From positions 160,001 to 224,000 of the forward strand of contig CAVZKL010000017.1 of assembly GCA_963775895.1 (NCBI GenBank): a stretch of DNA of 64,000 nucleotides, written 5' to 3'. The notes beneath the pieces were generated by a model. The model was not told where the DNA came from and ran no database searches. It saw only the letters and a list, made by a program, of their open reading frames with translations. This stretch comes from Candidatus Bathyarchaeota archaeon. GTDB lineage: Archaea; Thermoproteota; Bathyarchaeia; Bathyarchaeales; Bathycorpusculaceae. Shown here in pieces: positions 15,050 to 22,216 of the stretch. The position numbers and the translations under genes are program-made. Every line of letters begins with the position of its first letter. Positions within the stretch are counted from its first letter, which is position 1.

Positions 15050-16232
15050 TCAATTTGAATAGACTCCGAAACGCCACGATTCTTCTTTCTCGTAAAGGCT
15101 CCTGAGCACATCAGTGGCTATTTGTCTATCGACTGTGAGAAGCAGTTTTGCGATGTGCTTGCACAGCCTTTTCGTTGAATTGATCTTCTTCCAATCAGCG
15201 CAGTCGTGAAGCATGAGATTTGTCTCCCATGTCTATTGTTATATGGTATTCTTTCAACGTCGCTTCGATCAGGTCCTGGGTTTGTTTCGTCACTCGTAAC
15301 TCGATGTCTTCGATTTGTTCCGCTCGTTTCAACCGTTCTGGCGAAACAAAGTGGGCAATCAGGCTAGTGAAATCCATGTTTCTCGGAGGAACAAAAGCTT
15401 CGAGCGTGGAGCATGTCTGTTCCTCTTGCTTTTTGCGATAGTCTTCCAATCTCCTCTTTGCGTCCACTTGCTTCGGTTCGATCACTCCGAGAATCTCCAT
15501 TATTTGCAGGCAGTTTTCAACGGCGTAACCGTGATAATGGTTGTTGAAGTAGCCATAGACCTTGTCAACTTTGTTTGCAACTTCGTTGACTTTTGGGGCC
15601 CACGGCTGTAATTCCTCTACACTGTACAGGTAGTTGTACCATGGTCCATTGCCGTGTCCGTGCCATCTAAAATAGGCAATGTTGGACGTGACGTGAATTT
15701 CTGGGGGAAGCAGTGGTTCGTCGACTATCGCGTAGGCCACCCTGTATTTTTCAAGAAGCGCCCACGTCTCGTTCTTCAGCCACGAAGGGTGACGAAACTC
15801 AACCGCAAATCTGATGTGGGTTGGGAGGAGCTTGAAGAAGTCTTCCATTTGTTTGGGTCTGTAGTCGAATCTTGGAGGAAGCTGGATCAGTATACAGCCT
15901 AGTTTCCCGCTTAGAAAGAGAGGCTCCATCAGTTCCGTGAACTTCTCCAAATCCTTTTCTATTCCCTCTGCTAGATTCAGCTTTTTTTCATGAGTGATCA
16001 GCCCAGGCAGTTTTGCCGTGTACACGAAACTCTCAGGTGAGTACCGGGCCCAACCCATGACTGTACCCTTGTTTGGATAGCGGTAGAAAGTGGAGTCTAT
16101 CTCAACGCTTTTGAAAACGTTTGAATACGCTCTGAGCATACTTTTGTCCGACTTTGAATAGAATGGACCTATCCACTCTTTGTAGCTCCAGCCAGAAGTT
16201 CCCAGAAGTACCTTGTCGGAAGCTTTAATCAC
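15050..16232 (-). CDS. DUF72 (YecE-like) protein with C-terminal SWIM-like Zn finger (apparent frameshift near 15220)
   Basis: 'GTSGWSY', 'VEIDSTFY', 'QLPP', 'EFRHPSW', 'YFRWHG', 'FNNH'; the alternative frame continues 'LHDCADW...LCKHIAK' to TGA at 15050. Confidence 0.8.
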
Positions 16233-16237
16233 TTTAA

Positions 16238-17174
16238 TCACTCTATTATTGATTTCATTTTTTCTGCGACTTCTGATAGAGCTATCGTAGGTTCCTTCGG
16301 GGATTTTCCTCAAACATTCCGCCACATGAATTCTCTCAGTCTTGCTCAGATCGAATAGTTTCCATCCTTGACTGTGTATTAGCTGCTGTTTCGTCGCAGG
16401 GAAGCATGCGTCTTCTCTTAGCACCTCTTCTAATGAGGCGATTCCAGTTGAATTTGTTATCGATGGGAACTTGCCAGTTTGTTTGTAGGACTTCAACCTG
16501 ACAGCGTCTTTGTACATTCTTACAAAGTGAAAGCTCATGACTATCTTCTTGGATCTGCTACTGGTCGCCTTTCTATCTATTTCTACTAATTCCCCGTCAG
16601 TTGGTTGGTAAACGTTGTGTTCACCCTTGCCGAACAGCCTTGTGTACAGTACGTCTGAATCGTAAGCTGGGGTCTCGCCTTTCGAAAGGTCAACCGAGTG
16701 AATGATGTTAAAGTCCTGCATCACCTTGAGAAGTCCGCTAGGCAGATCGGCGCTTGGAGTTCTTCTGATTTCGAGCGCCAGTCTCAGACTTCCCAGATTC
16801 AGCGAACGCAGGGTTTGGCGAACGTTTTCAATCGTTGTTTCATTTAGTTCAAATGCTGGAGGTGCTTGAAGATGAAGGATTTCAGCGTTCAGCACATTGC
16901 AAATCCGTTTCATCTTCTCAAAGGATTCGAAAACCTCCTTTTCAGGCTTGAGTCTGTGCTTATGCGTAATCGATCTGTGTGCTCTGACCGAAAATTGAAA
17001 GTCGGTGAGTACCATTTTTCGCCAGCTCTCTGCTTCAGCAAGAGGAGGGATTTGATAGAAGGTCGAGTTGACCTCCACAAAATTGAAAACTTTCGAATAC
17101 GCTACTAACGACTTTAATTTCGGAACTTGAAAGTACGCCCACCCGCCAGCTCCAATGAGGTATTCTGTCAACAA
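16238..17174 (-). CDS. Divergent DUF72 protein with C-terminal DUF2795-like helical domain
   Basis: 'IGAGGWAY', 'VEVNSTFY', 'YTRLFG'; tail 'FPATKQQLI...LRKIPEGTYDS'. Removing one base near 16282 gives a natural end 'SLSEVAEKMKSIIE*' at 16238. Confidence 0.75.
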
Positions 17175-18498: not shown

Positions 18499-19792
18499 CT
18501 ACTTCTCGTGAAGTTTCTGAGCTGCGACGAAGGCTAGTCCATTTTTCGTGAGAGCTTCCGCGGTTCTGTTCACAGCATCGTGTTTGTCAAGGTAGTTCAA
18601 TAGCAGCTGCGGCATCAGTCCTTCCATCGAGAATATCTTTTTTGGGCCTGAAGTAGTCGAGGATATCCGATGCATGCTTTCTCTTGACTTCGGTTGCTGG
18701 AAGCCCACCTTCATGTTTTGCGCCGATGTTTCTGACATGGTCTGCAAGTTCGAGAAGTTCGCTAGTTCGGTCGTAAGGCTCTCGGACTATGCTCTTGTAC
18801 GCTTCCGTTATGTGATGCTCGATGCGAACTACGTTTTCAAAGTCAAAGAAGTCTCTCACGTAAGCAGCAAGTTCTATCGTCTGATTATTAACGGAGTTGG
18901 AAAGGTTGAAGCCGATAAGGGGCGTCGACCCATCTTCCCTGCTGAAGAGTTTCGCCGTCAATAACGTCCAGAGTATAGAGTACGGGTTGTCAATTCCCAG
19001 AAACACCGATATCTTGAATTCAATGTCGATGCCTAGCTTACGTAGCCAATATCCGAGCAAAACGGTTCCAGCGTTCGTGTTTAGTACTTGCGTGACCCCG
19101 TACTCAGTGTAGTAGTGCAGGAACTCGTCGACCCATTTCAACGAATACTCGTTCGGTGCTCCTACACCTCCGAAGTAGCCTGTTATCGTTTCGGGTCCAC
19201 CCAGGTGAACATTTATTGGTTTGCCATCCGGCCCCGATAGGGTTCCCTTCGTGTCCAAAGTCTGCACGTAAGAAGCTCCGATGATCTGCATTGACGCGGC
19301 GAAAGCAAGAATGTCGCCGTCTTCCACCTGTTCCTTCATTGAGCGTACGCGAATGTACCGACCGGGCATCAGTTCCTGTTTTTTGATGGCTTGCTTCGCT
19401 TCCTCGATGAGCCATGGGAAAAAGTTGAGGGCGCTGATTTCCAGGGTGACGGGAAAAGATTCGTCAAACTTCATCGATTCCGCTTTTTTTCCGAGGATCT
19501 TCTTTCTGTAATCGTGTATACTAATAAAAGCTTCTTTGTCGCGTTGATTGCTGAGCCATTCAAGATCCTTTGTGAATGATGATTTCTTTTTCTTGAGCCT
19601 GTTCATCAGGTTGTCAATCTTGCGAGCGTCTTCGGCTTTCTTGTTAATCTCTTTGACGCCGCCATACTTGTCGATGATTTCGAGCAGTCCGTTAACGAGG
19701 GGATTGTCCTTTTTCAGCAAGAACTTGTTAATTTCATCGAGATTTTGGTGGTCTATGCGTAGTTTGTCCCTAAGGTTAATCAAGATATTCAT
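18499..19792 (-). CDS. Conserved-looking hypothetical protein (~430 aa, apparent frameshift near 18625)
   Basis: Long ORF 18587..19792 with globular composition and Gly/His motifs ('NVHLGGPETITGYFGGVG', 'RIEHHITE', 'KHEGG'); C-terminus in ORF 18499..18747. Confidence 0.75.
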
Positions 19793-19922
19793 CCTCTCTG
19801 TTGCGATAACCTGTTCACAGCTTATTGTTTATAGTATTTTCGGAAAGAACGAATTCGATTGTTTTTTCGACAAAAATGAACTTAAATAATATAAGACCGA
19901 TGAACGTCTAAGAGGTCGTGGA

Positions 19923-21407
19923 TTGCTTATGTTCAAGCCTGAAGGAATTTTCCCCGCTTTGGTGACACCGTTTACCGATGATGGAAGTGGCGTTGATGAA
20001 CAAAGGCTGCGAGCGCTAGTTGACCATTGCATCGAGATGGGGGTTCACGGAGTCGTTCCATGTGGAACGACCGGCGAGTCTGTTAATTTGACGGTCGAAG
20101 AGAAGAAACGGGTCATCAGGATCGTGGTTGATGAGGTCAACGGAAAGGTTCCGGTCATAGCTGGGACAGGTTCCAGCGGGACGGACCAGACTGTTGAAAT
20201 GACGAAGTATGCCAAGGACGCTGGAGTGACGGCTGCTTTGATCGTCACGCCTTATTACTTGAAGCCTGCGGACCGCGGAATTTACGAACACTACAGCACC
20301 ATAGCGAGTGAAGTTGACTTGCCGATAATATTGTACAACATTCCGCAGTGCACGGGGTTGGATTTGCCTTGGCAGATGGTGGAAGACCTTGCCCAGATAC
20401 CGAACATCGTTGGTGTCAAAGACAGCAGTGGACAGTTGAAGTTCATACTGGCCGTTCTGGAAAAGGTCAGAGACAAGATAAATGTGCTTTGTGGACACGA
20501 TGAAGTTGTGATGGCTGGTCTAGCTGCGGGTTGTTCTGGCGCCATACTTGCCAGTGCTAATGTGATCCCTGACGTTTGGGTTCAAATGTACAACCATGTC
20601 AAAATGGGTGAGCTTCAGCAAGCTCGCGAGCTTCAGTACAAGATCCAAAAAATAGCCAGGATAATCGCCGGAAGCGGAGCGGTTGGAACAAAAGAGGCTT
20701 TGAACATGATGAAAATCAAGGTGGGGCCCGTCAGAAAACCTCTCAGTGTGGGTGGAGAGTTGACGTATGAATCAAGAGAGGAACTGCGTCTTGACCTGGA
20801 AAAGATCGGAAAGATAAAGCCTAGGGTAATATCCTTCGAGATGCCAGAGAAGCCGATCGAAGAACGGTTCGCGGCAGTCGAGATAACACCCGAGATCATC
20901 AAGGACTGGAATTTGCGAGTCGGGGAAGCTTTGGCGGGACAGGGTGCAGAAGTGGCACACATCGATCTTCTGATCGGCAGAAAAGATGGTCCTGTTGCTG
21001 CGGCTCTTGCGACTGCGAAAGCGACGCCGGAATCGGGACACGAGCCTTTGCTTGCAATTCTGGAGCCTAATCTTTCCGTCAAGCCTGTGACTCTGATCGT
21101 GCCAACTGTTACTATAACGAGTATGCGGCAGGCAAGTATGGTTTATGGTCCGGCGCAGACTGCGGTGGCAAAAGCCGTTGTTGACAGCGTTGCAGATGGG
21201 ACAATTCCCAAAGCCGCAGTAGACGAATTGGTGATAATCGCGAACGTGTTCGTTCATCCGACTGCGGTCGATAGACAGAGAGTCTACATCAACAATTACA
21301 AGGCGATGCGACATGCTATTCGCAAAACTGTGGAAGGCAGACCGAGTATTGACGAGCTCATAGAGAACAAGGATCGTTCGAAGCATCCGTTTAAGTATGG
21401 TCCGTAG
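19923..21407 (+). CDS. DapA/NAL-family class I aldolase fused to formaldehyde-activating enzyme (Fae) domain
   Basis: N-terminal domain 'GTTGES', 'YNIP', 'GVKDSSG'; C-terminal domain from ~20919 'VGEALAG.G.EVAHIDLLIG...GPAQ.AVAKAV.DSV..G.IP...NY.A...AI...HPF'. Confidence 0.9.
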   Translation: MLMFKPEGIFPALVTPFTDDGSGVDEQRLRALVDHCIEMGVHGVVPCGTTGESVNLTVEEKKRVIRIVVDEVNGKVPVIAGTGSSGTDQTVEMTKYAKDAGVTAALIVTPYYLKPADRGIYEHYSTIASEVDLPIILYNIPQCTGLDLPWQMVEDLAQIPNIVGVKDSSGQLKFILAVLEKVRDKINVLCGHDEVVMAGLAAGCSGAILASANVIPDVWVQMYNHVKMGELQQARELQYKIQKIARIIAGSGAVGTKEALNMMKIKVGPVRKPLSVGGELTYESREELRLDLEKIGKIKPRVISFEMPEKPIEERFAAVEITPEIIKDWNLRVGEALAGQGAEVAHIDLLIGRKDGPVAAALATAKATPESGHEPLLAILEPNLSVKPVTLIVPTVTITSMRQASMVYGPAQTAVAKAVVDSVADGTIPKAAVDELVIIANVFVHPTAVDRQRVYINNYKAMRHAIRKTVEGRPSIDELIENKDRSKHPFKYGP

Positions 21408-22216
21408 TGAGCGCAGTGATAGACGACCTGATTGTCGAGGGGCAGTACGTACTTCTCGAATTGAGTCAGCGCAAGACCTACTTGGTCAAGGTTGAAAAGG
21501 GCAAGAGTTTTCACACGCACAAAGGGTTTGTGACGTTGGACAACTTGATTGGAAAAGCGTATGGCTCAACCATATCGAGTAGTCTGGGTTTCGAGTTTGT
21601 TGCTCTGAAACCCATGCTTCGTGATTACATTTTGAAGTGTGCGAGGCAGACGCAGATCATGTATCCCAAGGACATTGCTCTGATAGTTATGTTCAGTGGA
21701 ATTGGACCTGGGAGTCGTGTGGTTGAAGCAGGAACTGGTACGGCAGCGATGACTACGGCCTTGGCGCATTATGTTAAGCCGAGTGGCAAGGTTTACAGTT
21801 ACGAGATCAGGGAAGAATTTCGGGTAACGGCTGAGAAGAATCTTGTCAGGGCTGGGTTGATTGATTTTGTGGAATTGAAGAACAAGGACGTAACGGCAGG
21901 AATAGATGAGGAAAAAGTGGACGCTGTGATTCTTGACCTCGCTGTTCCATGGCTGGTGGTTCCACGTGCATACGATGCTCTGAAAGCCAGCGGGACGATA
22001 GTCTCGTTCAGTCCAACGATAGATCAGGTTGTGAGAACCGTTGACGCGCTCAGGGAGAATAGCTTCACTGACATCGAGACCGTTGAATGTTTGATGCGGG
22101 GTATGCAGGTGGAAATCGGAAGAACTCGTCCCCAGACACTGATGACCGGTCACTCAGGTTACATCACGAACGCGCGCAAGAAAGTCAGGACCGGTGCATC
22201 AGACGAGCCAGCGTAA
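21407..22216 (+). CDS. trmI: tRNA (adenine-58-N1)-methyltransferase
   Basis: 'TQIMYPKD', 'VVEAGTGT', 'AVILDL..PW', 'SFSPTIDQV', 'GHSGY'. Confidence 0.93.
   Translation: MSAVIDDLIVEGQYVLLELSQRKTYLVKVEKGKSFHTHKGFVTLDNLIGKAYGSTISSSLGFEFVALKPMLRDYILKCARQTQIMYPKDIALIVMFSGIGPGSRVVEAGTGTAAMTTALAHYVKPSGKVYSYEIREEFRVTAEKNLVRAGLIDFVELKNKDVTAGIDEEKVDAVILDLAVPWLVVPRAYDALKASGTIVSFSPTIDQVVRTVDALRENSFTDIETVECLMRGMQVEIGRTRPQTLMTGHSGYITNARKKVRTGASDEPA

Follow-up and report, generated by a model that had tools for sequence, protein, structure and literature searches.

What reaction is carried out by a protein that joins an aldolase of the lysine-pathway DapA type to Fae, which acts on formaldehyde and tetrahydromethanopterin (H4MPT)? 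This question is raised by a gene in a 64,000-nucleotide stretch of the genome of a Candidatus Bathyarchaeota archaeon (GenBank assembly GCA_963775895.1, contig CAVZKL010000017.1, positions 160,001 to 224,000 of the forward strand), hereafter the window. Databases name the gene dapA because its score exceeds the cut-off of the TIGR00674 profile. Here, we describe the fusion as a new aldolase partner for Fae, accompanied by a conserved orphan enzyme, and we propose, with slightly better than even confidence, that it exchanges formaldehyde between 4-hydroxy-2-oxobutanoate (HOB) and H4MPT.

The fusion is a single uninterrupted open reading frame (ORF) of 494 codons on the forward strand when counted from its TTG, according to the ORF listing and translation. 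The start is likely the ATG at 19929 (codon 3), giving a protein of 492 aa, which is the length of most among the 120 best database homologues listed. Pfam places a DHDPS domain (PF00701, E 1.8e-82) at residues 6-293 and a Fae domain (PF08714, E 2.1e-61, 207 bits) at residues 333-490, the latter spanning model positions 1-158 of 159, and the protein scores 216.5 bits against the NCBIfam Fae profile TIGR03126, for which the cut-off is 118. An earlier note, made by a model from the sequence alone, had described one intact 494-aa aldolase-Fae ORF, and this description is confirmed. All the motifs it listed are present: GTTGE at residues 48-52, YNIPQCTG at residues 138-145 and at exactly the nucleotides it gave, VKDSSG with Lys166, and AHIDL with His346. 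The AHIDL histidine of Fae has a catalytic role. The Fae part aligns with residues 5-166 of the 169-aa Fae of M. extorquens (1Y5Y), in which the same motif stands opposite His346, so that full-length profile matches and alignment alike support a complete Fae domain that keeps this histidine. By sequence, both domains look catalytically intact.

The solved protein closest to the fusion is the DapA of M. jannaschii (2YXG), whose YNVPSRT arginine aligns opposite Cys143. In E. coli DHDPS, the corresponding residue, Arg138, binds the carboxylate of aspartate semialdehyde. An AlphaFold2 (AF2) model of the fusion is one confident two-domain body (pLDDT 90.7, pTM 0.89), and its barrel superposes on 2YXG with a TM-score of 0.96 and a root-mean-square deviation of 1.4 Å. 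Foldseek searches with the whole fusion returned solely DHDPS chains among the matches listed, and the Fae fold is therefore confirmed via sequence. Fae itself is a homopentamer that binds H4MPT between subunits, and DHDPS enzymes assemble as dimers or tetramers.

Could the protein be a genuine 4-hydroxy-tetrahydrodipicolinate synthase, serving lysine biosynthesis, to which a Fae domain has simply been added? Its score of 260.3 bits against the NCBIfam dapA profile TIGR00674, over the cut-off of 206.15, speaks for this and against the function that we propose. In addition, DHDPS enzymes are the closest solved structures, and the sources that name the fusion call it 4-hydroxy-tetrahydrodipicolinate synthase. 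The residues, phylogeny and gene content of the fusion-bearing lineages nonetheless make this reading very improbable. We aligned 44 fused proteins, all of the type 1 defined below and drawn from Bathyarchaeia, Asgard archaea, Thermoplasmata and bacteria, and counted residues column by column. The column of E. coli Arg138 holds cysteine in 30 proteins, valine in six, leucine in five, alanine in two and tyrosine in one, and arginine in none. Tyr138 and Lys166 of the fusion are each conserved in 43/44 and the Fae histidine, His346, in 44/44, while residue 192, which follows Gly191, is bulky (His in 26, Trp in 13, Tyr in 3). In a FastTree phylogeny of the N-domains built on 140 DHDPS-family representatives, 15 fused and three short solo proteins form one clade with a support of 0.988. 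No equivalent of E. coli Arg138 occurs in the fused clade; it is present in 58 solo proteins of the same tree, from which the fused aldolases are separate. The fused proteins thus branch among the relatives of DapA as a distinct clade of predicted class I aldolases.

The genome of the window (1.77 Mb, 88.8% complete) has the fusion as the sole DHDPS-family gene found, and in this incomplete genome we detected no dapB over cut-off, no lysA and no asd, and hence no separate arginine-containing dapA accompanied by asd or dapB. Among Bathyarchaeia, dapB was found in 0/44 fusion-bearing genomes compared with 39/107 others. The assertion in the earlier note that this is not a true DHDPS is thus borne out by the missing arginine, the missing dapB, the lack of a second dapA and the separate clade. 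Compared with DapA as known from M. jannaschii (2YXG) and E. coli (1DHP), the fusion has the same fold and the same catalytic Thr/Tyr/Lys residues; unlike DapA, it has no counterpart of the substrate-binding arginine, forms its own clade, has Fae attached and shows no co-occurrence with dapB across the 151 genomes.

The fusion did not arise through misassembly. Both Pfam domains are present in 120/120 of the listed database homologues, which are 84-96% identical to it, and independent contigs, from two other studies, run across the domain junction (X1 record 1, 18590-21148; X7 record 23, 18587-21407) while also covering the partner gene described below and the intergenic region in one piece. 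Nor is it absent from relatives, being carried by 44/151 Bathyarchaeia genomes. When 1.84 billion representatives were searched without a profile, about 13 clusters were listed as full-length fusions, at 35-55% identity. A locus scan with one genome per species, from which 80 loci were kept, extended the distribution to Promethearchaeota, Thor-, Hod- and Heimdallarchaeota and Thermoplasmata among archaea other than Bathyarchaeia, and among bacteria to Anaerolineae and other Chloroflexota, Thermodesulfobacteriota and a metagenome-assembled genome (MAG) of Myxococcales.

The family comprises two types of fusion. Type 1, which includes the protein of the window, carries the Fae histidine, NVFVHP, NNYKA and a C-terminal HPF(R/K)Y.P tail, and type 2, at ~470-480 aa, has lost the histidine as well as the tail. 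A type-2 gene lies directly before a type-1 gene in bacteria, Thermoplasmata and some Bathyarchaeia. Such tandem paralogues (for example L034 5998-8936 (-), L035 1197-4121 (+), L095, L098, L099, L104, L106 and L113) consist of an upstream copy of ~470-480 aa without the Fae histidine and tail and an intact downstream copy of ~495 aa, an arrangement that looks like subfunctionalised subunits of a hetero-oligomer. In P0129 and P0134, it is the Schiff-base lysine that is lost instead. We also observed long DHDPS-bearing ORFs with ~400 extra residues that have no Pfam match, among them one in G075 (L120 2808-4931 (-)) and P0140 (757 aa); the 707-aa ORF of G075 has its DHDPS domain at residues 416-697 and no Fae domain.

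If the fusion does not make a lysine precursor, what does it make? Its fold, the preserved Schiff-base residues and the missing carboxylate-binding arginine together point to a pyruvate aldolase that uses a small uncharged aldehyde. Because fusion to Fae is near-obligatory, that aldehyde would be formaldehyde, and with formaldehyde the product would be HOB, the keto acid of homoserine. The reading that we favor, although with confidence only somewhat above even, is therefore a bifunctional enzyme with formaldehyde as the aldehyde and the net reaction HOB + H4MPT <-> pyruvate + 5,10-methylene-H4MPT + H2O. In this model, the N-domain would act as a Schiff-base class I aldolase that makes or breaks the C3-C4 bond of HOB (HOB <-> pyruvate + formaldehyde), and the fused Fae would join formaldehyde to H4MPT or release it from H4MPT. 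The clade would have swapped the arginine that binds aspartate semialdehyde for a small or hydrophobic residue. The fusion and a divergent, unnamed, TIM-barrel-like protein would together constitute a two-gene module, with the partner making or consuming the C4 acid. We infer the substrate, the channelling and the direction alike.

The cofactor that this model calls for is likely at hand, judging the H4MPT pathway by one marker, Mch, which is present in the window genome (409 bits, C17:29019-29957) and in 4/4 other fusion-bearing genomes tested. A second Mch-like copy in the window genome (C27:62972-63906 (+)) gives two separate matches, one with an in-frame TAG, a pattern that a pseudogene, a frameshift or read-through could explain. 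A second Fae of this genome is part of a canonical Fae-Hps, encoded on contig C18. The aldolase half of Fae-Hps handles formaldehyde, and by analogy Fae-Hps can be taken as a precedent for Fae fused to a formaldehyde-handling aldolase. Like the fusion, Fae-Hps (NF009833), known from methanogens and other archaea, places Fae and an aldolase that handles free formaldehyde in one polypeptide in an H4MPT organism. The partner domain of our fusion is, however, a DHDPS-family Schiff-base pyruvate aldolase and not an Hps of the orotidine monophosphate decarboxylase fold, and its Fae domain is C-terminal, whereas that of Fae-Hps is N-terminal. In line with this, the fusion matches the Fae part of NF009833 alone (model positions 2-161 of 392, 178.6 bits compared with a cut-off of 274). 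The nearest known system is thus Fae-Hps by logic and DapA by sequence, and the fusion is a member of neither. The Fae-Hps of the window genome (G000:C18:56909-57385 (-), L002 829-2250 (-)) lies within an ORF of 473 aa and its Fae part begins no earlier than residue 92, reflecting either an N-terminal extension of ~90 aa or an internal true start.

Other substrates have to be weighed. DHDPS-family enzymes cleave many 4-hydroxy-2-oxo acids, and the aldolase could act on another aldehyde or 2-oxo acid, such as a sugar acid of the 2-keto-3-deoxygluconate type, or with 2-oxobutanoate as nucleophile, while Fae would be a co-expressed but uncoupled scavenger of formaldehyde. The substrate of the fusion is a prediction only, the window genome already has Fae-Hps, and one Thermodesulfobacteriota MAG (L108) has a gene for an enolase-superfamily sugar-acid dehydratase after its fusion pair, all of which would fit such a role. 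We nevertheless regard it as unlikely: 15/18 representatives of the clade are fused to Fae and the three solo ones are short, the paralogues with a degenerate Fae stand in tandem with an intact copy, the two domains are modeled as one confident body (as judged by pTM), and the small or hydrophobic arginine site together with His, Trp or Tyr at residue 192 suggests a small uncharged aldehyde. A more specific alternative is an H4MPT-dependent stand-in for PanB that would convert alpha-ketoisovalerate and methylene-H4MPT to ketopantoate. Ketopantoate is the 3,3-dimethyl analogue of HOB, and PanB performs the same formal chemistry with methylene-tetrahydrofolate (methylene-THF). PanB is, however, found in 22/44 fusion-bearing Bathyarchaeia genomes compared with 27/107 others, and in 6/10 compared with 1/24 within the order to which the window genome belongs. 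Because PanB co-occurs with the fusion instead of alternating with it, we rejected this role, which we consider very improbable. As a separate observation on the Thermodesulfobacteriota locus (L108 4496-11578), two MttB-family genes (trimethylamine methyltransferase-like, 389 bits, below cut-off) flank the fusion pair.

The earlier note had proposed a link to homoserine-type amino acid carbon, and gene neighborhoods and distributions support this link indirectly. In a 96% complete genome (G031), an ACT-domain protein, the fusion, thrB (201.7 bits) and thrC (376 bits) follow one another, and we found no asd and no hom in that genome. A 97% complete genome (G012) has the fusion as well as an adjacent thrB-thrC pair, and aspartate kinase, asd and hom were not found in it. 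At an Anaerolineales locus (L113), thrC (598 bits) comes directly after the fusion pair, and a further Bathyarchaeon has a Thr/Ser-dehydratase-like gene after the fusion. The G135 genome has a broken copy of the fusion, with hom immediately in front of it. Phyletic patterns are also suggestive. Across Bathyarchaeia, asd was found in 12/44 fusion-bearing genomes compared with 78/107 others and hom in 10/44 compared with 82/107. Within the order of the window, the two are nearly complementary to the fusion, with asd in 1/10 fusion-bearing genomes compared with 24/24 others and hom in 1/10 compared with 23/24. Thirteen genomes have thrB without asd and hom, and nine of these carry the fusion. In the window genome itself, no homoserine-using enzyme was found.

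A number of observations weigh against the HOB reaction or against its generality. The choice of HOB and formaldehyde draws solely on the fusion partner and the lost arginine, and is thus putative. Some bacteria, for which H4MPT is hypothetical, also carry the fusion. Genes of threonine biosynthesis adjoin the fusion at just 4 of ~100 loci, two of which were picked because they had already been noticed. Four genomes have thrB without asd, hom or the fusion; the G075 genome with the long DHDPS-bearing ORF is one of these four. Hom is present in 10/19 fusion-bearing genomes of other phyla, including that of L113, so a bypass of asd and hom is not general, and the phyletic counts are not independent because the MAGs are related and incomplete. 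In the window genome, we found no thrB or thrC over cut-off and no HcyBio, and Cys/Met-family pyridoxal phosphate enzymes are represented by weak generic matches at most; since these enzymes were not found, no source or sink of HOB or homoserine is identified there. A hom-like gene of this genome (C20:6083-6613 (-), L007 1471-2223 (-)), in a frame of 250-273 aa, matches just residues 81-337 of the 341-aa Bathyarchaeial Hom, leaving the first ~80 residues unmatched, and its Rossmann N-terminus seems to be missing. The absence of a TIGR00191 thrB is itself uninformative, because genomes of one family (f11) with asd (14/14) and thrC (13/14) also miss it (0/14).

In which direction would the enzyme run? 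One possibility is that it is synthetic in the window organism too, with pyruvate and methylene-H4MPT yielding HOB and then homoserine in place of aspartate kinase, Asd and Hom. The near-complementary distribution of asd and hom in the order, the operon with thrB-thrC in G031, the thrC that follows the fusion in L113 and the G012 genome with thrB-thrC and no detected aspartate kinase, asd or hom would all fit, as would the lower-scoring thrC-family genes (216-234 bits, over cut-off) that persist in 4/10 fusion-bearing genomes of the order. Counting against it, thrC is not found over cut-off in the window genome or at threshold in G110 and G124, and a homocysteine-forming enzyme was found in 0/5 fusion-bearing genomes of the order, where searches for homocysteine routes gave no HcyBio and weak Cys_Met_Meta_PP matches. 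Moreover, the surviving thrC-like type coexists elsewhere with a ~380-bit thrC, and the window genome is incomplete. Taken together, synthesis in the window organism appears doubtful, although less so than the alternative substrates considered above. Because no homoserine consumer was found in the window genome, we lean, by very little, toward cleavage of HOB there, with the partner protein supplying the C4 acid and the reaction feeding pyruvate and a one-carbon (C1) unit into the H4MPT Wood-Ljungdahl pathway. In lineages in which the fusion adjoins thrB-thrC and asd and hom are missing, like G031 and G012, it is more likely that the reaction supplies homoserine. The thrC-family paralogue of ~213-234 bits occurs widely among Bathyarchaeia, in open frames of 470-600 aa and often besides a ~380-bit thrC that adjoins hom (examples are G008:C3:11341-12306, G142:C37:3480-4445 and G031:C1:116634-117605).

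The second component of the proposed module is a conserved gene upstream of the fusion that the earlier note did not mention (Table 1). Its product has no Pfam match, even at E 10. Members of this family (~427 aa, range ~400-430) occur within two genes of the fusion in 50/95 loci, in divergent orientation in Bathyarchaeia and upstream on the same strand in Asgard archaea, and the proteins of these two groups are 62-66% identical. In a further 11 loci, an unnamed protein of ~316 aa takes the place of the partner, bringing the loci with either type within two genes of the fusion to 61/95. The association is exclusive among Bathyarchaeia, in which the partner was found in 19/44 fusion-bearing genomes compared with 0/107 others, and in the order of the window in 10/10 compared with 0/24. 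An AF2 model of the partner (pLDDT 69.7) begins with an N-terminal helical bundle, after which strands and helices alternate, and on the basis of this model the protein may be TIM-barrel-like; Foldseek against the PDB returned generic TIM barrels alone, with E > 0.001, and a comparison with the ESM Atlas gave nothing at or above 0.9. We considered whether the ~427-aa and ~316-aa types are one family and rejected this, as hhalign was weak (probability 28.8%, E 6e-4) and hidden Markov model profiles of the two gave no cross-hits.

Table 1. Features of the aldolase-Fae locus in window coordinates.
Feature	Position	Strand	Evidence
Aldolase-Fae fusion ORF, stop included	19923..21407	+	ORF listing, Pfam, NCBIfam, homologues
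DHDPS-family class I aldolase TIM barrel (predicted), residues 6-293	19938..20801	+	PF00701, AF2 model
YNIPQCTG: catalytic Tyr138 and Cys143 (E. coli Arg138 position)	20334..20357	+	2YXG alignment
Lys166 codon, Schiff-base lysine in VKDSSG	20418..20420	+	2YXG alignment
Linker, residues 294-332; modeled short strands 301-305 and 312-316	20802..20918	+	AF2 model
Fae domain, residues 333-490; His346 codon 20958-20960	20919..21392	+	PF08714, TIGR03126, 1Y5Y
Conserved partner, 401 aa, no named family, divergent from fusion	18587..19792	-	Pfam, locus survey
Divergent intergenic region between partner and fusion, 130 bp	19793..19922		ORF listing
TrmI/GCD14-type tRNA methyltransferase; GTG start overlaps fusion stop by 1 base	21407..22216	+	ORF listing, Pfam

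The C-terminus of the partner in the window may be frameshifted, as contigs of all four runs have one base fewer at 18622-18624, within the last ~12 partner codons, and homologues match the protein of the window just to about residue 389 of 401. Either an assembly error or a genuine mutation may underlie such a frameshift. At 19862, in the divergent intergenic region, one base is likewise left out by the contigs of all four runs. On the other side of the fusion, the pairing with the TrmI-type gene is syntenic in the order of the window, and its cluster (c2) lies downstream in 33 loci; this neighbor is probably functionally unrelated to the fusion. A class-wide conserved operon was considered and rejected, as beyond the partner the neighbors vary by lineage (TrmI-type methyltransferase, Ribophorin-I-like, S9 peptidase, peroxiredoxin and others). 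Elsewhere in the window, a 659-aa ORF at 15195-17174 (-) has two DUF72 stretches, the best at residues 343-560, and is apparently a DUF72 protein in duplicated or fused form.

The proposed chemistry, pyruvate + formaldehyde <-> HOB, has counterparts in engineered HOB aldolases, in the synthetic homoserine cycle and in HOB cleavage by PanB. The HOB aldolases of engineered pathways are promiscuous native enzymes in engineered hosts and use free formaldehyde or THF, and the synthetic homoserine cycle and the promiscuous cleavage of HOB by PanB provide links to homoserine or pterin-bound C1 units. To our knowledge, the net reaction proposed here is otherwise known only from engineered pathways. 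The engineered 2-keto-4-hydroxybutyrate (HOB) aldolases are reported to be class II metal aldolases (for example, PMC10022506 and PMC10992282). The fusion, in contrast, would be a natural and dedicated class I enzyme coupled to H4MPT. Literature searches found no account of this fusion and no paper that pairs Fae with DHDPS or DapA, with the proviso that supplementary tables may list the gene under K numbers; this agrees with the statement of the earlier note that no characterized enzyme has this architecture.

The carbon flow of Bathyarchaeia and Asgard archaea, which rank among the most abundant cells of anoxic sediments, is a reconstruction from annotation. The fusion has consequences for annotating these sediment archaea: the gene is routinely and wrongly counted twice, as a DapA for lysine and as a fae for formaldehyde detoxification. 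In the available portions of two studies, fae is treated as a marker of formaldehyde detoxification or assimilation and the fusion goes unremarked (Hou et al. 2023, PMC10321748; PMC11631310). Our analysis also flags a very conserved partner enzyme of no named family.

More broadly, it is possible, although we hold this view tentatively and with clearly less confidence than the reaction itself, that the fusion is a natural H4MPT-dependent 'pyruvate hydroxymethyltransferase'. Together with a transaminase, it could provide energy-starved archaea of sediments (Bathyarchaeia and possibly Asgard archaea) with an aspartate-independent, ATP-saving route from pyruvate and the C1 units of the Wood-Ljungdahl pathway to homoserine and threonine. 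Aspartate kinase, Asd and Hom would repeatedly have given way to such a route, and the synthetic homoserine cycle would have a counterpart in nature. In the opposite direction, and with the orphan partner, the route would let C4 acids enter the C1 pool by a catabolic path not described so far. Should the proposed reaction prove correct, the fusion would connect the H4MPT Wood-Ljungdahl pathway with pyruvate and C4 metabolism at a new node, and synthetic C1 assimilation, which builds this reaction from promiscuous aldolases, would have a natural enzyme dedicated to it. It may also explain why thrB and thrC are kept in lineages without aspartate kinase, Asd and Hom.

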